Source of the DNA: Octopus sinensis
Lineage: Eukaryota
DNA length: 45,808 nt
Direction of reading: 5' to 3'
Assembly: GCF_006345805.1 (NCBI RefSeq)
Contig: NW_021828078.1
Coordinates: forward strand, 1 to 45,808
Shown here: positions 1,526 through 44,657 of the stretch, one piece after another
How the letters are laid out: every line of letters starts with the position of its first letter
Numbering within the stretch: the stretch's first letter is position 1
The notes under the pieces: generated by a model
What the model saw: the letters and a program-made list of their open reading frames with translations, nothing else
The model's database searches: none
Told to the model about the DNA's origin: nothing
Made by a program: the position numbers and the translations under genes

Positions 1526-1889
1526 ATATGCACACACAAACGCACACACACACACACACACGCACACACACACATAGACACACGAACACACACAAATGCC
1601 TAATTTGGGCGTTGGATCTGTGCATGCATGTATGAATGTATGCATATATGAGTTTGTGTGTGTGTGTGTGTATACGTGCATGAGTGTGTGTACTGGAATG
1701 CTTACATACATGCATATGAATATAGACAGATTTATTATGTGCGTATGCGTACGCGCGTATGCCCCTGTGCACTGTGCCACTGTGGTAGTGGATATATATA
1801 TATATTATATATATTATATATATATATATATATACATATAAATATTGAACAATGAGAATGAGCTTTCAACCCGCATTGGTGGTTTATAA

Positions 1890-2020
1890 TTTCTTTACTT
1901 GTGTATTAAGGCTACCGCTGTTTTCATGTTACGAGAATATCTAAATATCTTAAGAAAAGTGTTAAGGTTTAATATTTTCTTAGCATGAAACCAATGGTAG
2001 CCTTAATACACAGCTAAGAA
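1890..2020. repeat. Inverted repeat (~60 bp arms), each arm carrying the 3' half of a hammerhead-like core; second copy at 3149-3282
   Basis: tgtgtattaaggctaccgctg(g)tttcatgtta ... ttagcatgaaaccaatggtagccttaatacaca. The right arm reads catGAAA-ccaatg-GTA-gcc. Confidence 0.8.
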
Positions 2021-2241
2021 TATATATATATATTATATATGTATATATAATATATGTATATATTTAGTTGAATTTACAGAAAAAACAAAAAAAAACCAAG
2101 ACAGGTGTATAAACAGCAAACGGAAAGTGAGAAAGTCTTTTACGTTTCGAGCCTACCTCTGCAAATGAAAGGAACACGGGGAAATAAACAGATAGAGAAT
2201 AAAAGACTATTGGAGTTAGCGGTGAATCATACATACTATAC

Positions 2242-2288
<47 letters not shown>

Positions 2289-2504
2289 TATATATATATA
2301 TATATTATATTATATACACACAGACATATATATATTCATATGTGGGCATATATATATTATATGTGTAGATTGCTTGGAGACATAAGGCGTGTTATAAAAA
2401 CTTGGCTAGACCCGTATCTTCAAGCATGAAACTAATAGCAGTTAGTATCATTATATTTTGTACATTGTTGATGTCCCCTTGAGAGAAAATAAACTATTCG
2501 AATA

Positions 2505-2539
<35 letters not shown>

Positions 2540-2715
2540 ATAGATATATATATATATATTATATTTCGATGGGTGATGAATTATCCTATTTTACCGTCAA
2601 CATGGAAAATTGGATGAACAAATACCAGGTAGCAATTCACGTCAGAAAACACAGTTGAAGCGACACATCCAAGGTAGAAACTCCGGTTCATGTGCAGAAT
2701 TTGTGTATTATATAT

Positions 2716-3052
2716 GAAAAAATAAATAAATGGAGTTGAACGAAGGTGTTGATAAAATTCCTTTACTTACGGCATATGTTTCGAAGACAACATGGTTTTA
2801 TTCCAAATGAATAAACGGTGTAAGATGCAATCTTCTCATCAGGAAAGAAAGGGAGCCTCTCTCACCACAGACAATATAATAATACAATGACTGCATTGTC
2901 TTGTTGATGAGAGAGGCTCCCTTTCTTTCCTGATGAGAAGATTGCATCTTACACCGTTTATTCCTTTGGAATAAAACATGTTGTCTTCGAACATATGTCA
3001 AAAGTAAAGAATTTATCAACATCTTCGTTCAACTCCATTTATTTATTTATTC
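2716..3052. mobile_element. ~340 bp foldback element with two back-to-back hammerhead motifs, inserted in (TA)n; second copy at 3987-4330
   Basis: Arms of about 155-160 bp are near-perfect reverse complements around a short AT-rich centre (~2875-2895). The arms contain CTGATGA-gaaga...tcttc-GAAA-catat-G(T/C)C, and both flanks are TA repeats. Confidence 0.8.
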
Positions 3053-3401
3053 ATATATATATATATGTGTGTGTGTGGTGTGTATATATATACATATAAA
3101 TATTGAACAATGAGAATGAGCTTTCAACACCGCATTGGTGGTTATAATTTCTTTACTTGTGTATTAAGGCTACCGCTGGTTTCATGTTAAGAGAATATCT
3201 AAATATCTTAAGAAAAGTGTTAAGGTATTAAGATATTTTCTTAGCATGAAACCAATGGTAGCCTTAATACACAGCTAAAGAATATATATATATATTTATA
3301 TATGTATATATATATATATGTATATATTTAGTTGAAATTTACAGAAAAACAAAAAAAAAACCAAGACAGGTGTATAAACAGCAAACAGGAAAGGTGAGAA
3401 A

Positions 3402-3440
3402 GTCTTTTACGTTTCGAGCCTACGCTCTGCAAATGAAAGG
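3402..3440 (-). ncRNA. Degenerate minimal hammerhead ribozyme of Penelope-like type; other copy at 2135-2172
   Basis: Minus strand reads cctttc-atttgca-GAGC-gtag-GCTC-GAAAC-GTA-aaag. Helix II (GAGC/GCTC), GAAA, the palindromic ACGT helix III and helix I (cttt/aaag) are present, but the CUGANGA box has decayed. Confidence 0.55.
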
Positions 3441-3546
3441 AACACGGGGAAATAAACAGATAGAGAATAAAAGACTATTGGAGTTAGCGGTGAATCATAC
3501 ATACATACATACATACACACATACATATATATACTATATATATATA

Positions 3547-3586
<40 letters not shown>

Positions 3587-4193
3587 ACACAGACATATAA
3601 TATATCATATGTGCATATATATATTATATGTGTAGATTGCTTGGAGACATAGGCGTGTTATAAAAACTTGGCTAGACCCGTATCTTCAAAGCATGAAACT
3701 AATAGCAGTTAGTATCATTATATTTTGTACATTGTTGATGTCCCCTTGAGAGAAAATAAACTATTCGAATAAATAATATATATATATATATATATATATA
3801 CTATATATATATATATATATAATATATATTTTCGAGGGTGAATGAATTATCCTATGTTTACCGTCAACATGGAAAATTGGATGAACAAATACCAGGGTAG
3901 CAAATTCACGTCAGAAACACAGTTGAAGCGACACATCCAAAGGTAGAAACTCCGGGTTCATGTGCAGAAATTTGTGTATTATATATGAAAAAATATATAA
4001 ATGGAGTTGAACGAAGGTGTTGATAAAATTCCTTTACTTACGGAATATGTTTCGAAGACAACATGGTTTTATTCCAAATGAATAAACGGTGTAAGATGCA
4101 ATCTTTCTGGAAGGAAAGAAAGGAGCCTCTCTCACCAACAAGACAATATAATAATTACAATGACTGCTTGTCTTGTTGATGATGAGAGAGGCT

Positions 4194-4287
4194 CCCTTTC
4201 TTTCCTGATGAGAGATTGCATCTTACACCGTTTATTCCTTTGGAATAAAACCATGTTGTCTTCGAAACATATGTCAAAAGTAAAGGA
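4194..4287 (+). ncRNA. Hammerhead ribozyme motif (type I topology, palindromic helix III ACATATGT, GUC site); duplicate at 2919-3009
   Basis: CTGATGA at 4205-4211, GAAA at 4264-4267, ACATATGT at 4267-4274, GTC triplet at 4273-4275. Helix II ga(a)ga/tcttc encloses an inner hairpin tttattcc/ggaataaa. Helix I cctttctttc pairs with aaaagtaaagg, with a mismatch at the first pair. Confidence 0.65.
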
Positions 4288-4330
4288 ATTTTATCAACAT
4301 CTTCGTTCAACTCCATTTATTTATTTATTC

Positions 4331-4362
<32 letters not shown>

Positions 4363-4544
4363 ATATATATACATATGCATGTATGCTTGTATGTATGTAT
4401 ATGAAGTCGTCATTTCAGTTATACAGCGAACGTTTGCATGAGAATGATCATCTGTTGCTTGTTAAAACATTACATAACAGAACAAAGTAACAAAACCATT
4501 TCGTCAGACATGATTTGAATCTTCAATATATATATTATATTATA

Positions 4545-5816: not shown

Positions 5817-5964
5817 ATTACTTCTTACAGCTGTTTCAGCCTATGGTCAAAAGTGAATCTAATTTTCATTGCCTATACATGTCAACATACTAAGGTTGTA
5901 GGCATTAAAAAAAATATAATACTTATATGTTAAAGAACCATAGGCCTCGTCAGAGGTTATAATT
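5817..5964 (-). ncRNA. Motif-complete hammerhead ribozyme with an 11-bp helix II and ~87-nt loop II
   Basis: Minus strand: CTGACGA (5953..5947); helix II GGCCTATGGTT (5946..5936) pairing with GACCATAGGCT (5848..5838); GAAA (5837..5834); palindrome ACAGCTGT (5834..5827); GUA triplet (5828..5826); helix I CT/AG plus AATTAT/GTAATT across an internal loop. Confidence 0.72.
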
Positions 5965-9151: not shown

Positions 9152-9420
9152 TGTACAAGACATCACCATGGTGCAAATAACATGAATACGTAAACTACGA
9201 GAAAAAAGGAAACACACAGAAAGGACCCTTCATCAGTTGTCAGCTATCTATCTAGTCCTCCTTTCGAGCATTCAACGACAATATGAGTCTTCAAAGACAG
9301 TTGCTCATATAAATTCAAAAATAAAATTGAGTATTTATGGAAGGCATACAAGGAAACCGAATGAAAACAAATATGGACGGTTGTTAGGCCAGAACAAGAA
9401 GAAAATAGTGATAGATAGAA
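9150..9420 (-). mobile_element. Possible Penelope-like terminal-repeat remnant next to (TA)n
   Basis: Minus strand has gagca...tgctcGAAA and, downstream, aaCTGATGAaggg. These are hammerhead half-motifs, not a complete fold. Confidence 0.35.
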
Positions 9421-9423
9421 ATA

Positions 9424-10131
9424 GGATTTCCTGGAAAGTTCCGAGGATGAGACTTCATGGAGAACTCCGAGGTTGGGAGTTGAGACTTCCTGGAAAATAT
9501 CGTGGAACGTTCCGAGGAGAGACTTGAGACTTCCTGGAAACTTCCGTTGATTTCCTGGAGAGTTTCGAGGATGAAACTCCATGGAAAATTCAGAGGACTT
9601 CCTGGAAAATTCCGAGGGCTTCCTGGAAAATTCCGAGGATTTCCTGCAAAGTTCCAAGAAAGAGACTTACTGGAAAACTCAGAGGACTTCCTGGAAAGTT
9701 CCGAGGATGAGACTTTAGTCTTCCTGGAAAATTCCTAGGATTTCCTGGAAAGTTCCGTGGATGAGACTTCCTCGAAAATTGAGAGGACTTCGTAGAAAGT
9801 TCCGAGGATGAGACTTCCAGTAAAATTCCGATGATTTCCTGTAAAGTTCCCAGGATGAGACTTGAGATTTTCTGGAAAATTGGGAGGATTTCCTAGGAAG
9901 TTCCGAGAAAGAGACTTCCTGGAATGTTACCTCCTGGAAAATTCCGAGGATTTCCTGGAAACTTCCGATGTTGCGACTTCCTTTGAAAATTCCGGATTTC
10001 CCTGGAAATTTCCGAGGATAAGGCTTCCTGGGAAATTCCGATGGCTTCCAGGAAACTTCCGAGGATGAGCCGTGATACTTCCTGGAAAATTTCGAGGATA
10101 CCCTGGAAAGTTCCGTGGATGAGACTTCCTG
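9424..10131. repeat. Minisatellite with mixed 21-bp and 26-bp units (core ACTTCCTGGAAA(A/G)TTCCGAGG, with or without ATGAG)
   Basis: Roughly 30 degenerate units. Short and long units often alternate, giving ~47-bp higher-order periodicity. Confidence 0.92.
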
Positions 10132-14905: not shown

Positions 14906-15351
14906 GGATCTTTTCGGTTTGACCTGCAGTTTTTACTAGCGGTGTCATATGAAATTGTCACCCATAATTATAACCCTAGTATCGATCTATTGCATTTCAA
15001 TCTGTTTTAGGGTTAGGGTTAGAGTTAGGGTTAGTTAGGGTTAGGGTTAGGGGTGGGGAGAAGGGTATCTTTTTTTCTTCACAAATGTAAATAAACCCAA
15101 TCTGTTTCTTAAACGAGGGACATATTCATATGGCACAGAATGTTTTTTACCCCAATAGACGTCATTGATTGGTTGAAATTGCAGAAATTGAAGAAAAGAT
15201 GCAACAAATATCTTACAAACTATAGAATTTTCTCAATAAAGCCAAGAGAAAAAGATGTTTTATAAACACATTCTACCAGTATACGAAGTTTAAAAGAGTT
15301 TAGTTACGTGGAAATTATTTTAAAAAACTGCCGTTCAAACCGAAAAGATCC
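14906..15351. mobile_element. ~446 bp non-autonomous TIR element with internal TTAGGG repeats
   Basis: Ends GGATCTTTTCGGTTTGAcctGCAGTTTTT ... AAAAACTGCCGTTCAAACCGAAAAGATCC; ttagggttagggttagagttagggttagttagggttagggttagggg at about 15007-15053. Second copy at 19786-20661. Confidence 0.9.
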
Positions 15352-15604
15352 AAAACATCTTTCTAAGAGGAAGAATTGAAAGAATTGAAGACGGAAGATA
15401 ACATACACACATATACGTATTTACGTTAATATTCACTCATGCAGTACTGGTTATAACAAGTCCTAAAACACATCAGAACACGCGGTGGGACAAAACTAGA
15501 AACTTACGTGGTTGCGAAACGTACTTCTGAACCACACAGACATAGATACCTTTTTTTTTAATGTGTTTTTACGAGTTATTATGTTTACAATATTTAATCA
15601 ATTA

Positions 15605-16007
15605 AAGGCGACGAGCTGGCAGAAACGTTAGCATGCCGGGCGAAATGTTTAGCGGCATTTCGTCTGCCGTTACGTTCTGAGTTCAAACTCCGCTGAGGTC
15701 GACTTTGCCTTTCATCCTTTCGGAGTCGATGAATTAAGTATCAGTTATGCACTGGGGTCGATGTAATCGACTTAATCTATTTGTCTGCCCTTGTTTGTCC
15801 TCTCTGTGTTTAGCCCTTTGTGGGTAGTAAAGAAATAGGTATTTCGTCTGTCTTAACGTTCTGAGTTCAAATTCCGTCGAGGTCGACTTTGCTTTTCACG
15901 CTTTCTGGGCTTATAAATTAAGTACCAGTTGCATACTGGGGTAGATCTAATCGACTGGCCCCCCTCCCCTAAAATTTCGGACCTTGTGCCAAGAGTAGAA
16001 AAGAATA
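15605..16007 (+). mobile_element. SINE family B (tRNA head, Meta-domain-like core), tandem dimer
   Basis: aaggcgacgagctggcagaaacgttagc head, B-box-like gagttcaaactcc, core gtcgactttgcctttcatcctttcggagtcgat; the body repeats after aaagaaatagg. Confidence 0.9.
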
Positions 16008-16122
16008 TTTAAACAATCACGTTTTCTTTTAAATTTTGAGGGAGGCATTGATAAAATCGGTATTAATAAAATCATGTAACAAGTCTTATTTTAATAAATT
16101 TATTCTATCTCCACTCATAGAT

Positions 16123-16700
16123 ATTCTTTTCTACTCTAGGCACAAGGCCCGAAATTTTTAGGGAGGGTGCCAGACAATTATATCGACCCTAGTACGCAAC
16201 TGGTACTTAATTTATCGACTCCGAAAGGATGGAAAGCAATGTCGACCATGGCGGAATTTGGACTCAGAACGTAAAGATAGACGAAATACCTAATTCTTTA
16301 CTACCCACAAGGGGTTAAACACAGAGAGGACAAACAAGGACAGACAAACGGATTAAGTCGATTATATCGACCCCAGCGCGTAACTGGTACTTATTTAATC
16401 GACCCCGAAAGGATGAAAGGCAAAGTCGACCTCGACGGAATTTGAACTCAGATCGTAAAGACAGACGAAATACCTGTTTATTACCCACAGGGGCCTAAAC
16501 ATAGAGGGGACAAACAAGGACAGACAAACGGATTAAGTCGATTATATCGACCCCAGTGCGTAACTGGTACTTAATTTATCGACCCCGAAAGGATGAAAGG
16601 CGAAGTCGAGCTCAGCGGAATTTGAAATCAGAACGTAGCAGCAGACGAAATACCGCTAAGCATTGCGCCCGGCGTGCTAACGATTCTGCCAGCTCGCCAC
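16123..16700 (-). mobile_element. SINE family B, tandem trimer
   Basis: Three reverse-complement copies of the body; the head ends at gccagctcgccacc (~16700). Confidence 0.9.
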
Positions 16701-19785: not shown

Positions 19786-20661
19786 GGATCTTTTCGGTTT
19801 GAACGGCAGTTTTTTCTAGCGGTGTCATACTCTTTTACTCTTTTACTTGTTTCAGTCATTTGACTGCGGCCATGCTGGAGCATCGCCTTTAGTCGAGCAA
19901 ATCGACCCCGGGACTTATTCTTTGTAAGCCCAGTACTTATTCTATCGGTCTCTTTTGCCGAACCGCTAAGTGACGGGGACGTAAACACACCAGCATCGGT
20001 TGTCAAGCAATGCTTGAGGGACAAACACAGACACACAAACATATACATACACATACATACATATATATATACATATATATATACGACAGGCTTCTTTCAG
20101 TTTCCGTCTACCAAATCCACTCACAAGGCATTGGTCGGCCCGAGGCTATAGCAGAAGACACTTGCCCAAGATGCCACGCAGTGGGACTGAACCCAGAACC
20201 ATGTGGTTGGTAGGCAAGCTACATACAACACAGCCACTACTGCGTCATATGAAATTTTCACCCATAATTATGACCCCAGTATCGATCTATTGCATTTCAA
20301 TCTGCTTTAGGGTTAGGGTTAGAGTTAGGGTTAGTTAGGGTTAGGGTTAGGATCAAGGTTAGGGTGGGGGGAAGTTATCTTTTTTTTCTTCAGAAATGTA
20401 AATAAACCCAATCTGTTTCTTGAACGAGGGACATATTCATACGACACAGAATGTTTTCACCTCAATAGACGTCATTGTTTGGTTGAAATTGCAGAAATTG
20501 AAGAGAAACAACAACAAATATCTTACAAACAGTAGAATTTTCTCAATAAAGCCAAGAGAAAAAGATGTTTTATAAACATATTCTACCAGTATACGAAGTT
20601 TAAAAGTGTTTAGTTACGTGGAAATTATTTTTAAAAACTGCCGTTCAAACCGAAAAGATCC
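19786..20661. mobile_element. Second copy of the TTAGGG-bearing TIR element, inserted in (TAG)n and interrupted by a SINE
   Basis: TIRs GGATCTTTTCGGTTTGAACGGCAGTTTTT / AAAAACTGCCGTTCAAACCGAAAAGATCC; the body is colinear with 14906-15351 once 19830-20249 is removed. Confidence 0.92.
19830..20243 (-). mobile_element. SINE family A, full length, nested in the TIR element
   Basis: Flanked by the direct repeat GTCATA (19824-19829 and 20244-20249), which is single in the uninterrupted copy. Confidence 0.92.
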
Positions 20662-26752: not shown

Positions 26753-27173
26753 GTTTACACATGTAGATTTGTATACAGAAAAATACTTTAAAAGGAATAA
26801 ATTTTCAGTTGGACTTACCTTGAAGCATTTTGTTTAGAGAAAGTCTCCCAGTGTCATCATAGTAAAGAATATCTCTCAATTACCAGTTTGATAATATGTC
26901 ACAATATCAGTTCCAGTGGGTGACAAAGTCTGTGAAAAGAGAGATAAAGATTGTTAAAAATATGAAAAAAAGGTAAATGTCGAAACTTCATCTAAATATT
27001 ATCTGGGGCAGCATTTCTCAAGAATTTTTTTGCTTTTTTTTTGAGTGCCAAACGGTCAGAAACTTAAAAAAGAAGTTCAGTGTAATGGAAACTGGATAAC
27101 ACAGCTGAGTGATGGAATGAAGTAAAATCCTTAACTTAGAATGATGTTTGGAAAAAGATATGATCAGACACAT

Positions 27174-27800
27174 AGGTGTAGGAGTGACTGTGTGGTAAGT
27201 AGCTTGCTTACCAACCACATGGTTCCGGGTTCAGTCCTACTGTGTGGCACCTTGGCCGAGTGTCTTCTACTATAGCCTCGGGCCGACCAAAGCCTTGTGA
27301 GTGAATTTGGTAGACGGAAACGGAAAGAAGCCCATCATATATATGTATATGTATATATATTTCTTTATTGCCCACAAGGGGCTAAACATAGAGGGGACAA
27401 GCAAGGACAGACAAAGGGATTAAGTCGATTACATCGACCCCAGTCCGTAACTGGTACTTAATTTATCGACCCCGAAAGGATGAAATCCAAGTCGACCTCA
27501 GCGGAATTTGAACTCAGAACGTAACGGCAGACGAAATACGGCTACGCATTTCACCCGGCGTGCTAACGTTTCTGCCAGCTCGCCGCCTTTATGTATATGT
27601 ATATATGTGTGTTTGTGTGTCTGTGTTTGTCCCCCCCAACATCGCTTGACAACCGATGCTGGTGTGTTTACATCCCCGTAACTTAGCGGTTCAGCAAAAG
27701 AGACCGATAGTATAAGTACTAGGCTTACAAAGATTTGCTCGATTAAAGGCGGTGCTCCAGCATGGCCGTAGTCAAATGACTGAAGGAAGTAATAAGAGAC
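27174..27800 (+). mobile_element. SINE family A, full length, with a SINE B inserted in its TA spacer
   Basis: 5' half at 27174-27340 and 3' half at 27600-27800. Confidence 0.9.
27361..27588 (-). mobile_element. SINE family B monomer nested in SINE A
   Basis: Reverse-complement monomer from ttctttattgcccac to gccagctcgccgcctt. Confidence 0.92.
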
Positions 27801-32232: not shown

Positions 32233-32762
32233 ATACATACACACATACATATTTGTACATAGACATACATATACACATATGTATAGTACGTTTGTATGTA
32301 TACACACACACACACACACGCACACACACACAACAAATACTCACACATATACATCCATAGACATATTACACGATTAATAAAATGAGGTAAGCAATACTTC
32401 GGCCTGCTTCTGTTTTTCAGTTATAAAACATTGCTTGTCGTCTTTTTTTTTTTTGTTTTCTTTCTTCTTTAACAATACTTGCCATGCAAAAGGCACTCGT
32501 CAATGTTCCTCTTTAACTTCCCCCTGTGCCGTGAAATGAAAGAGACTCGAGACCCACTAAGCGAAGTATATAACTAATTAAAAACAAAAATAACCCAAGT
32601 ACGAAGAAACTAGCAACGCTGATGATGAAATGATGACGATGATGATGTTGGTGGTGGTGGTGGTGGTGGTTGCTGTGCCTTCTTGATGGGTGCTTACGGC
32701 TTTTAGGGGACCAGATTATGATTCATGTATAGTGCGGTTTGTTGTCAATTGATATAAATATT

Positions 32763-33180
32763 TATTTCTTTATTGCCCACAAGAGGCTAAACAGAAGGAA
32801 CAAACAAAGACAGGCAAAGGGATCAAGTCAATTATATCGACCCCAGTGCGTAACTGGTACATATTTAATTGACCCTGAAAGGATAAAAGGCAAAGTCAAC
32901 CTCGGTGGAATTTGAACTCAGAACGTAGCGGCGGACGAAATACCTATTTCTTTACTACTCACAAAGGGCTAAACACAGAGAGGACAAACAAACAAGGGCA
33001 GACAAACGGATTAAGTCGATTATATCGACCCCAGTGCGTAACTGGTACTTATTTAATCGACCCCGAAAGGATGAAAGGCAAAGTCGACCTCGGCGGAATT
33101 TGAACTCAGAACGTAACGACAGACGAAATACCGCTAAGCATTTTGCCCGGCCTGCTAAGGGTTCTGCCAGTTCGCCGCCT
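32763..33180 (-). mobile_element. SINE family B, tandem dimer
   Basis: Two reverse-complement bodies; the head ends at gccagttcgccgcct. Confidence 0.9.
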
Positions 33181-33441
33181 AATTGATATATCGTTAGACC
33201 CCAGTGCTTTGATTTGCCTAGTATCCTGTTATGTTACTCAGACAGATCCTGGTGGAGGCAGCAGCAGTGGTGGTGGTGGTGGTCTACATTGGCAATCATT
33301 CTACGGCACAGTATATAAGTCTTGGATAAGGAGAAGTTTCTAGGCTCTCAGGAGAAGAGGAAGCTAAAATTTTGTTGATGACCTTATTTGGAACAAAAAT
33401 TTTTATTTTGTATTTTCTTGCTAGAAGTTTATTCTTAAACA

Positions 33442-34106
33442 AAGAGTCGACTCAGGTGAAGAGCCAATCCCAAGCGGAGAGTTAATCCCAGAGGGAGAGT
33501 CAATCTCAGACGAAGAGTCAAACCCGGGCGAAGGGTCAATCTCAGGCAGAAAGTCAATCGCAGGCAAAGAGTCACTCTCAAGCGAAGAATCAGTCTCAGG
33601 CAGAGTCAATTTCCGGCAAAGAATCAATCCCAGACGGAAAAGTAATCTCAGGCAAAGAAAGAATCAATCACAGACGAAGAGTCAATCTCCGACGAAGAGT
33701 CAAACTCAGGTGAAGAGTCACTCTCAGGCAAAGAACTAATTACCAGCAAAGTGTCAATCTCCGGCAAAGTGTCAATCTCAGGCGAAGAGTTACTCTCAAG
33801 CGAAGAATCATTCTCAGGAGAAGATTCAATCTCCGGCAAGAGTCACTCTCAAGTGAAGAATCAATCTCAGGCGAAGAGTCAATCTCCGGCAAAAAAATCA
33901 ATTCCAGGCGGAGAGTTAATCTCGGGTAAAGAAAGAGTCAATCTCAGACGAAGAGTCAATCTCTGGCGAAGAGTCAATCTCAAACGAAGAGTCATTCTCA
34001 AGCGAAGAACCAATCTCCAGCAAAAAGTCAATCTCTGGCGAAGGGTCAGTCTCAGACGGAGAGTAAATCTCAGGCGAAGAATTAATCAGAGACGGGGAGT
34101 CAATCA
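33442..34106. repeat. 18-bp minisatellite, consensus GAGTCAATCTCAGGCGAA, about 36 units
   Basis: Regular 18-nt periodicity with scattered substitutions and a few indels; the minus strand translates as (PEIDSS)n in three broken ORFs. Confidence 0.93.
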
Positions 34107-34769: not shown

Positions 34770-35165
34770 GCGTTAGCACGCTGAGGGAAATAACTCGCGT
34801 ATAATTTCGTCTGCCGTTAGGTTGTGAGTTCAAATTCCGCCGAGGTCGACTTTGCCTTCATCCTTTCGGGGTCGATAATTAGTACATTTCGACTGGGTCG
34901 ATGTAATCGACTTCTACCTATGTCTGTCCTTGTTTGTTGCCTCTGTGTTTGTCCCCTTGTGGTAAAAAGAAATAGGTATTTCGTCTGCCGCTACGTTCTG
35001 AGTTCAAATTCCACCGAGGTCGACTTTGCCTTTCATCCTTCCAGGGTCGATTGAATAAGTCCCAGTTACACACTGGGGTCGATATAATTGACTTAATCCG
35101 TTTGTCTGTCCTTGTTTGTCCTCTCTGTGTTTAGCCCCTCGTGGGTAGTAAAGAAATAGGTATTT
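34770..35165 (+). mobile_element. SINE family B, tandem dimer (first unit degraded)
   Basis: Two bodies with gagttcaaattcc...gtcgactttgcc...ggggtcgat, ending aaagaaataggtatttc. Confidence 0.88.
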
Positions 35166-35175
35166 CTTTACGTTG

Positions 35176-35332
35176 GGCGCAGGAGCGGCTGTATGGTAAG
35201 TAGCTTTCTTACCAACCACATAGTCCCGAGACTATAGTAGAAGACACTTGCCCAAGGTGCCACGCAGTGGGACTGAACTCAGAACCATGTGGTTGGTAAG
35301 CAAGCTACTTACCACACAGCCACTCCTGCGCC
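35176..35332. mobile_element. Foldback made of two inverted SINE A heads
   Basis: A + head gggcgcaggagcggctgtatggtaagtagc...accacat is joined to a - head ...accacacagccactcctgcgcct. Confidence 0.88.
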
Positions 35333-35603
35333 TATAATAACTTTCCTTGGGTTCGATAAAATAATTACCATGCACCAAGAACAGGATTCCACATAATTTA
35401 TAGGAATTGCTCCAGTATGGTTGCAGTTCCGTGACTGAAACTGGTTAAACAATTAAACAATACATGCCACCCACCCCACCCCACCACCACCGATACCCTG
35501 GCATCAGGACCTGCAACTGAAAAGCACATAGAAACATCGTTACAGTATCATATGAAGACGGAATCCTGGCATGACCACCGTGTTGAACAACTGAGTATTT
35601 GAC

Positions 35604-40797: not shown

Positions 40798-41256
40798 TTT
40801 TAATAATAAATGCAAGTTCTTTTAACAACCGCTTTGCAATATTGCTGTCTTCTAATAGCTGTCTTCTTTAAATTTTACATTATCAAGTGTTGCATACTTT
40901 CCCGGAGTTTGCTAAGAAAGTTTCGTTGCTTGGCATACCTACAGATATGTGCCCCACCCCACCAAATTTGTTTCCTCATAACTTCCTGAAAAATTTATAT
41001 TTTATATGAAATTTTCTACAAATATGCTTCGGGTGGTATAGATACCGATTATGTCGGAATATGTGGTGTGAAGATTTCTCCGTCGATGGGGAGAGGAGTT
41101 TCAGTAAATTTACACGAGTTGCCTTAGTTTCCTTATAGTTTTCATTGCTTTAGCATGAGTAATATAAAGATTACATTGTTATCAAATCACTACATAACGG
41201 TTTGCTTTGCTTCAGTTTGATTCCGTATGTAACTATATTCGAGTATATAACAGCAT

Positions 41257-41475
41257 AAGGCGGCGAGCTAGCAGAATCGTTAGCACGCCGGGCGAAATGC
41301 TTAGTAGTATTTCGTCAGTCTTAATGTTCTGAGTTCAAATGTCACCAAGGTCGACTTTGCTTTTCATCCTTTCGGGGTCGATAAATTAAGTACCAGTTAT
41401 GCACTAGAGTCGATGTAATCGACTGGTACCCTCCCCCAAAATTTCAGGCTTTCTTCCTACGGTAGAAAGGATTAT
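41257..41475 (+). mobile_element. SINE family B monomer with probable target-site duplication
   Basis: aaggcggcgagctagcagaatcgttagc...gtagaaaggatt, flanked by tatataacagcat and tatataactgcat. Confidence 0.9.
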
Positions 41476-42394
41476 ATAACTGCATGTTATATGTAAATAA
41501 ACAATACACTTCTTTCGTTCGGTTTGCATCAAAAGCGTGACAATAATATGAATGACATGAATTTAATTTTTTCCCTACACATAAACGTAGATATGATAAC
41601 GGTATTTATGATGATGATGTGTTTAGTAATGAATACTAACTGCATTAGAAATACATCGATGTGTATGTGTGTGTATTAAAATTTATAAGCAATATTTAGG
41701 CAGTAATTTTTCATTGCTTTATAAATGCACCTTCTTTTAATATAATTGCATTTGATCCTTTCCTCTACTGACGTTCGAGCTTCCTTAGTGTTGCATGTCT
41801 TGCCAGCATTCTTCGCATATGCATGCTGTAATGTATATACACTACAGGAATATATAATGCAATGATATTAAATCAATATAACGCATGCTATCTTAAAGAT
41901 AGCGTTTCCATTATAGCATATACATACATATATATACATATATATTCATACATGCATAAGCACATACACACATATATACTTGCATATATGTTTGGAACTT
42001 CAAGAGAACTGAAGTAAATTGTTTTTTACTGCTAAACTCGAAGTGGATGAAGTTATGAATAAGAAAGATAGCTTGTAGAATATTAGGTTAAAAAACTTAA
42101 ATTGGGTTGGACACACATTAATTCATGGACACTGTTTTTTTCACGTTGATTAATTCATGCCCTTAATGGTACTTGGACTTTTGAGCTGTTCCCAAGAGAG
42201 CTAATGGAACACTCACATTCATTATACTGCTCTTGGCAATTTAGCACAGCAAGTTACTTGATCACCTTGCACATGCTTTACAGCTAGTCAGACTGAGCTA
42301 GCAAACCAATTTTAAGAATTGTTGAGTGCGTTATGTCTAGTTAGACATTGAGAAGTAGCTGCTACTGTTGCTGTCCCAGAGCAGCAAGATCGCG

Positions 42395-44179: not shown

Positions 44180-44333
44180 CATTTAATCGACCCCAAGAGG
44201 ATGAAGGGTAAAGTCGACCTCGGCGGAATTTGAACTCAGAACATACGGACAGAAGAAATGCCATGAAGTATTTCACCCGGTGTGCTAACGAGTCTGTCAG
44301 CTTGCCGCCTTGATAATAATAATAATAATAATA

Positions 44334-44391
<58 letters not shown>

Positions 44392-44603
44392 CCTTTCTAC
44401 TGGAGGCACAAGGCCTCAAGTTTGTGGGGTGGGGACTAGTCGATTATATCGACCCCAGTGTTTCGCTGGTACTTAATTTATTGGCCCCGAAAGGATGGAA
44501 AACAAAGTCAATCTCAGCGGAATTTGAACTCAGAATGTACGGACAGATGAAATGCCATGAAGTATTTTGCCCAATGTGCCAACGATTCTGTCAGCTAGTC
44601 AGC

Positions 44604-44605
<2 letters not shown>
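44180..44605 (-). mobile_element. Two diverged SINE family B copies (44180-44311 and 44390-44605) interleaved with (AAT)n
   Basis: Both contain cggaatttgaactcagaa...gaaatgccatgaagtattt; (AAT)n tracts at 44313-44390 and 44605-44716. Confidence 0.85.

Positions 44606-44657
<52 letters not shown>

Follow-up and report, generated by a model that had tools for sequence, protein, structure and literature searches.

How does a near-perfect palindrome with a hammerhead ribozyme motif in each arm come to lie in a (TA)n repeat of Octopus sinensis? An earlier reading, made from the letters of the sequence only, described a non-coding foldback unit, probably retro-derived in spite of a MITE-like appearance, in which self-cleavage would compete with formation of a double-stranded hairpin. 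We followed up this locus in the window, by which we mean the whole stretch of DNA analysed (45,808 nt), and among related copies in genome G000.

Structure of the palindrome

The near-perfect foldback of ~340 bp was recovered in (TA)n at 2709-3059, where an alignment of the sequence to its own reverse complement has 88.5% matches in 357 columns; the sequence folds with a minimum free energy (MFE) of -224.1 kcal/mol, compared with -63.9 ± 4.8 kcal/mol for shuffled sequences (n = 100; z = -33). The sequence-only reading had given it the extent 2716..3052; the foldback itself is real, but the insertion is larger and asymmetric, with a tail that carries the left arm to ~2564 (Table 1). The two arms differ by 7 substitutions over 157 aligned bases and by 12 gap columns, a divergence of 4.5% that includes changes that break the hammerhead core, and the loop of the hairpin is the 22-nt difference in truncation between them. 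By blastn, the left arm is 87% identical to a natural copy (L033) and 80% identical to the pLTR and tail that precede the open reading frame (ORF) in L113, and the right arm is 93% identical to L033. The sequence from +130 to +277 runs on to the ATG of the ORF (MELFNINAS...) in L106, L113 and L115, with the end of the tail ~55 nt before the ATG, and we therefore assign the tail to the 5′ UTR of the next element unit. No target duplication was readable inside the (TA)n microsatellite. Folded in isolation, single arms were no better than shuffles (z from -1.3 to +0.6), and the fold of the tail region was weak (z = -2.0).

Table 1 Features of the palindrome and its duplicate; family positions are counted from the hammerhead C3 (position 0).
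Feature	Position	Strand	Remarks
Tandem duplication, ~1.27 kb	1825..4376	+	Units 1825-3097 and 3083-4376; carries the palindrome twice
(TA)n target, left flank	2505..2564		
Left arm	2564..2894	-	5′-truncated 3′ end attributed to a Penelope-like element; family positions -55 to about +277; ends at the 'long' site
Tail, ~150 nt	2564..2708	-	On the left arm only; read as the 5′ UTR of the unit that follows
Left type I hammerhead motif	2760..2852	-	CTGATGA box at 2842; C3 at 2842, C17 at 2771
Right arm	2897..3055	+	5′-truncated 3′ end attributed to the same family; positions -33 to +129; ends at the 'short' site
Right type I hammerhead motif	2920..3009	+	CTGATGA box at 2930; C3 at 2930, C17 at 2999
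(TA)n target, right flank	3056..3070		
Duplicate's left arm with tail	3831..4167	-	CTGATGA box garbled, GUC lost
Duplicate's right arm	4169..4333	+	Best-preserved hammerhead of the window; C3 at 4205, C17 at 4275

A second copy of the palindrome (3980-4337) lies inside the tandem duplication. The duplicated units are 94% identical and differ by 13 substitutions as against 57 gap columns, an excess of indels that suggests assembly noise and that the duplication itself may be unreal. Between the two copies the left arms are 98% and the right arms 100% identical, and at least 4 of the 7 substitutions between the arms are shared with the duplicate's left arm. Contigs of DNA sequencing runs do not separate real from assembly-made for the tandem duplication or for the GAAC deletion described below. 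Summed depth of these runs, which here is no copy number, was far lower at the palindrome centre than on the arms. The palindrome locus is dead transposon debris.

Hammerhead motifs in the window and across the family

The hammerhead boxes, a helix II domain of ~51 nt (earlier put at ~50 nt) and a palindromic helix III (ACATATGT) stand where the sequence-only reading had placed them. In the left motif U16.1 is replaced by C, confirming the GCC for GUC that had been read there, and helix I has a mismatch; to judge from these changes, the left hammerhead is likely to be inactive. The right motif has GAAC for GAAAC, possibly an assembly indel, together with a C-A mismatch at the first pair of helix I and an A in place of the family's G after GUC. 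The arm consensus proposed earlier thus contains the core boxes but matches no single arm. The duplicate's right arm has GAAAC and differs from the right arm by 8 gap columns and no substitutions; its hammerhead retains the helix I mismatch, and its helix II is one base short. Defects were found in all four hammerheads of the window, none of which fully conforms to type I. The cut had been predicted after C4275, a base that belongs to the second copy and falls outside the extent that had been given for the element; its equivalent in the first copy is C2999.

An Rfam scan of the window returned no hammerhead family among the matches listed (the best 150 of 233 weak matches). With no such match listed and single-arm folds that do not rise above shuffles, we base the hammerhead call on motif, family conservation and context. 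Rfam miRNA matches in the window were rejected as simple-repeat or hairpin noise.

Self-cleavage at the window locus is predicted to be unlikely, because the core is paired in the hairpin and the antisense arm is made first in a transcript of either strand. Predicted energies are about -230 kcal/mol for the foldback hairpin and about -20 kcal/mol for the hammerhead fold, and in a read-through transcript of the window copy (copy 1) the predicted probability that the core is paired exceeds 0.99. The hairpin would therefore mask the hammerhead; the competition that the earlier reading envisaged is predicted to be one-sided, and all four arms are defective. The hammerhead of the window copy is thus likely to be both hairpin-masked and damaged.

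Across the family the motif is a type I hammerhead, with the core boxes CUGANGA, GAAA and NUH and helices I-III. With the proposed structure applied to 24 natural copies, 88.3% of cells were paired, compared with 39-47% in slid controls, and 7 of the 27 helix pairs had changed on both sides. The covariation score exceeded that of all 500 shuffles; two of the five covariation measures were not above shuffles (73/500 and 367/500). The rows are related to one another and many were chosen by the core pattern, so the invariance of the core is partly by construction. Two divergent copies from the protein search retain the core, and L120 retains the helix III palindrome by means of a TA-to-CG change; a change that preserves the palindrome would, as expected, fit intermolecular pairing. 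The computed energy of the self-duplex of the helix III 8-mer is -7.0 kcal/mol, and for an intact copy the computed hammerhead fold reaches -19.9 kcal/mol against an MFE of -23.3 kcal/mol. The core is intact downstream in 51 of 76 pattern matches. The hammerhead belongs to the pLTR of the parent element, and there it would likely need to dimerize or be assisted by protein in order to work. Such motifs of Penelope-like elements (PLEs) are described as weak, dimer-dependent cutters (PMC4209133), and the hammerhead of an anole PLE cuts only with protein and is dispensable for insertion in vitro (PMC11167929). The pLTR and tail of L113 are covered by contigs of four runs whose RNA origin is only a guess; two of the contigs join opposite strands, and contigs of this kind carry no information on transcription, strand, cleavage ends, circles or editing.

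The parent element

The right arm gave 51 scored matches among 1,936 candidates in genome G000. A 27-nt core pattern has 78 exact matches there and a gapped core pattern 2,146, with none for the reversed control. Longer copies extend upstream into a 3′ UTR and then into an ORF with RT and GIY-YIG domains. A search with the RT part gave 150 scored matches, 20 of which we examined at 8 kb; L103, L119, L120 and L122 have open frames of 644-914 aa that span the RT motifs and the IYQC..YIG domain. The ORF has the motifs RIRW, QSDKT, MGSxDSAQIADLVG, GLYRDD and NFLD followed by a C-terminal IYQC..YIG, and its C terminus lacks CCHH and has CxxC and CxH around a conserved E and N (CNICNSE...VN...KCKHW). 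Units are arranged directly as pLTR-ORF-pLTR in L113 and L115, and have inverted ends in L103, L107, L110 and L111. A divergent subfamily, L119-L121, has the cleavage triplet GUA and open frames of 865-914 aa; its loci are likely the youngest intact relatives.

Pfam matches were all sub-threshold: GIY-YIG with E = 0.02, and RVT_1 in 1 of 14 aligned proteins, a homolog. A PDB profile search with the ORF protein gave nothing significant. Matches in the ESM Atlas (0.95-0.98) belong to eukaryotic clusters with HTH_animal or RVT_1 on 16-84% of members. A search for homologs of the EN fragment among longer proteins found none, and a search with the RT region found 42, the closest named proteins being octopod (40-73% identity). 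Three octopod gene models that match the RT region in this range (P0005, P0006 and P0042) are named GATA zinc finger domain-containing or myb-like; their sequences suggest that they are likely to be misnamed transposon ORFs.

Taken together, the arms of the palindrome are almost certainly 3′ ends of a Hydra-clade PLE. We placed the element by its motifs, which were compared by eye with the Hydra rows of Fig. S7 in PMC8557442. The sequence-only reading had suspected a Penelope-like, retro-derived origin behind the MITE-like look, and descent of the arms from an element with RT and GIY-YIG bears it out. No CxC occurs in the 45 residues before EN in any of 24 rows (18 distinct copies), whereas the CxCX5C linker is present in 9 of 10 aligned outside homologs and the tenth is a partial protein; the ORF described here has an Asn/Ser-rich linker. 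Since the CxCX5C linker is absent, we file the family as derived Hydra-type rather than as a typical member.

Copies across the genome

We sampled 77 of the 78 exact matches, which lie in 73 loci (one exact duplicate was omitted), and dropped one near-identical locus to leave 72. The copies have two fixed ends ~150 nt apart, about +129 ('short') and about +277 ('long') from the hammerhead C3, and a TA run follows 97 of 112 ends. An inverted partner of at least 24 bp lies on the 5′ side in 41 of the 72 loci, 13 of which have a whole hammerhead in both arms, and 31 loci have no such partner. Whether the centre of the palindrome is fixed or variable across the genome was the decisive test: the 41 inverted loci have 38 different junctions. 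As centres vary between loci, each insertion makes the palindrome anew, and the palindrome does not transpose as a unit. The idea that the foldback is a unit of its own falls on these counts, on the 31 unpaired loci and on the origin of its arms in a protein-coding element. Four loci (L036, L058, L086 and L087) hold one and the same inverted insertion with shared flanks, which is a segmental duplication or redundant assembly.

For the end classes we removed three loci that share flanks with a fourth, leaving 38 independent inverted loci. Of these, 34 combine one long and one short end, one has two short ends, none has two long ends and three are unclassified; one-long/one-short in 34 of 35 classifiable loci has p = 1e-9 against an expectation of 0.5. 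Closer inspection of the 18 loci scored as single and short-ended revealed a tiny inverted long end in four. A further 30 loci, drawn mostly from other subfamilies, included four pairs with two hammerheads, all with mixed ends; the other 22 loci were left out of this scoring. By eye, the first 100 of the 2,146 gapped matches include 13 head-to-head pairs within 4 kb, each with arms of the same subfamily. Arms diverge by 4.3% within a locus and by 5.6% between loci, a difference that is not significant (p = 0.058; 12 loci of one subfamily). Junction overlaps of 1-9 nt occur in 16 of the 34 mixed loci.

Origin of the head-to-head ends

It is very improbable that the palindrome is mobile in its own right as a non-autonomous unit, MITE-like or retrozyme-like, or that it is a hairpin or small-RNA locus under selection. 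The near-perfect foldback, its two copies in the window and the inverted insertion present four times with shared flanks speak for such a unit, but no centre is shared between loci other than these repeated ones, whose common flanks make them segmental duplicates. Its outer ends are asymmetric, its arms have diverged to the extent of breaking the core, and DNA-run contigs that end at 2896-2897 go on into the family's upstream sequence with no fold back; this reading is already largely refuted. It is also very improbable that two insertions of the same family landed independently, back to back, in one TA repeat, or that the foldback was created in assembly. In favour are the small size of the contig, the clustering of ends from several families in this hot spot and the predominance of indels among the differences between the duplicated units. 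Against it, the arms are not separated by any TA repeat, a long end paired with a short one in 34 of 35 loci is not what independent insertions would yield, and a read chimera would not give the 7 substitutions between the arms, at least 4 of them common to the duplicate's left arm.

Inversion by fold-back, in which one cDNA or antisense template self-primes or switches template and is copied, has a precedent in head-to-head rotifer Penelope palindromes, which have been read as self-priming on an antisense template (PMC3846280). The short arm of the window copy lies wholly inside its long arm (Table 1), and this copy is among 11 of the 34 mixed loci that are compatible with fold-back copying. 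In the other 23, all independent, the short arm has no tail but extends beyond the 5′ limit of the long arm; each arm then has sequence that is absent from the other, so neither was copied from the other. Eight long arms start no earlier than +111 and have hardly any overlap with their partner, which also counts against fold-back, and we regard it as unlikely.

We think it probable that the palindrome consists of two 5′-truncated PLE 3′ ends set head to head in (TA)n by a single insertion primed from both target strands. Such priming is indicated because one arm ends at each site in 34 of 35 loci and because neither arm can copy the other in 23 of 34. The GIY-YIG endonuclease of the element would nick both strands of the TA repeat, cDNA synthesis on element RNA would start at +277 from one nick and at +129 from the other, and both cDNAs would end early before their tips are joined, often over a few shared bases. 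We infer this mechanism from genome structure and from the protein of another clade: in vitro, the protein of an anole PLE, a predicted dimer, cleaves both strands and extends them, with two RT start sites that define the tail (PMC11167929). That study observed no difference between the strands in the use of the start sites, which counts against the two-strand model.

A more speculative extension, which we hold to be rather unlikely, is that a dimeric RNP primes both target strands, one from each fixed start site, on two RNAs that the palindromic helix III holds in a pair. In that case the role of the hammerhead dimer would be pairing and packaging for double-ended insertion more than cutting, and (TA)n targeting in this family would have outlived the loss of the zinc linker credited with it.

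Comparison with known elements

In twin priming of L1, another cDNA is started from the second target strand, and the result is an inversion with microhomology at the junction. Here, in contrast, both priming sites are fixed and the cDNAs usually overlap, so that the product is a palindrome and not a non-overlapping inversion.

Hydra-clade PLEs include Hydra-1_Obim and Penelope-13_HM (Craig et al. 2021, PMC8557442), and the supplement of that paper describes for Penelope-13_HM a 5′-truncated inverted copy with a hammerhead on each strand. The present family shares with the clade, as described there, a single ORF with RT and C-terminal GIY-YIG, RW, DKT, a divergent RT4, GLYRDD, CxxC and CxH without CCHH, a hammerhead near the 3′ end and (TA)n. 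It differs in its ~51-nt helix II (about 12-24 nt in the Hydra hammerheads listed), in having an Asn/Ser-rich linker in place of CxCX5C and in an ORF of up to ~900 aa. Hydra-1_Obim, also from octopus, has the CxCX5C linker and another hammerhead sequence and is hence a different family.

Penelope elements with inverted pLTRs (Arkhipova et al. 2013, PMC3846280; PMC8557442, Fig. 2) likewise have head-to-head pLTRs, a 5′-truncated inverted copy, a tail that is often at one end only and Asn-rich inserts between RT and EN. Their tail is 30-40 nt long and reaches into the ORF, whereas here it is ~150 nt long and lies in the 5′ UTR, and the one-long/one-short rule is counted here. The minimal hammerheads of PLEs (Cervera and de la Pena 2014, PMC4209133) are also type I motifs in pLTRs, with an enlarged helix II and a palindromic helix III suited to dimers, and dual motifs ~100-700 bp apart on opposite strands are described among them; here helix II is longer and branched, the palindrome has 8 nt and G10.1 directly follows A9 with no extra base. 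Poseidon of Anolis (PAc; Frangieh et al. 2024, PMC11167929) resembles the present family in its two RT starts downstream of the hammerhead, the cutting and extension of both strands and an AT-rich target; it belongs to another clade, and its start sites lie close together inside the ORF. Inverted insertions are left unexplained in the accessible text of that study.

We rejected a MITE or Tc1/mariner derivative in view of the variable centre, the asymmetric ends and the RT parent. A non-LTR retrozyme was rejected as well: copies are dispersed, single or inverted, and not arranged as tandem direct repeats, and the duplication in the window includes unrelated flanks. The accessible part of a retrozyme preprint (10.64898/2026.07.22.740005) makes no mention of octopus. 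Among the papers listed on inverted or head-to-head Penelope ends, twin priming and Octopus hammerheads, from sources that take in neither paywalled journals nor repeat libraries, no title or displayed abstract presents this family or the counted rule; Repbase or Dfam may well have an entry for the family already. Inverted PLE ends with hammerheads on opposite strands, head-to-head pLTRs with a one-sided tail and Asn-rich linkers are already in print in the sources cited above; the family, its long helix II, its long tail, the missing CxCX5C linker and the counted one-long/one-short rule are new.

Other repeats in the window

A smaller head-to-head palindrome of another repeat family lies at 3143-3288 (duplicate 1885-2026) and breaks off within a hammerhead-like motif. 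The helix III part of this palindrome, GAAACCAATGGT, is the one listed for Hydra-1_oBim, and its relatives have an upstream TTGAAGA box and form further inverted pairs. The end of a third repeat family at 2368-2470 (duplicate ~3640-3740) is also hammerhead-like (CCGAAGA ... GAAAC TA T TAG TA in relatives), with inverted pairs elsewhere in G000. A short repeat at 3380-3490 on the minus strand (duplicate ~2110-2220), also present in L018 and L019, has a small hairpin followed by GAAACGTA, a layout similar to that of a minimal hammerhead whose first box has decayed. With the palindrome and these three further hammerhead-like repeat ends, the 1.3-kb unit holds at least four such ends nested in TA repeats. 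Motifs of the form GAAAC-palindrome-GT at 5837 (-) and 21484 (-) may be hammerhead remnants.

Elsewhere in the window, a SINE-like repeat with a period of ~180 bp has many tandem and inverted copies (15600-16700, 27170-27800, 32750-33190, 34770-35340, 41250-41480 and 44180-44630). Minisatellites occupy 9417-10131 and 33442-34105, with units of 21/47 bp and 18 bp and 36 copies in the 18-bp array. Short interstitial (TTAGGG)n runs at 15007-15052 and 20307-20365 lie inside a repeat that is present twice at 91%.

Implications

The origin of inverted ends and one-sided tails in PLEs is stated to be unresolved in PMC8557442. With thousands of copies and start sites 150 nt apart, the family described here makes a one-long/one-short rule easy to score, and it shows (TA)n targeting without the CxCX5C linker. 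In public annotation, pieces of its ORF probably go under the names of host genes. There are at least hundreds of such foldbacks in the genome, and they are a likely source of long double-stranded RNA in host transcripts.
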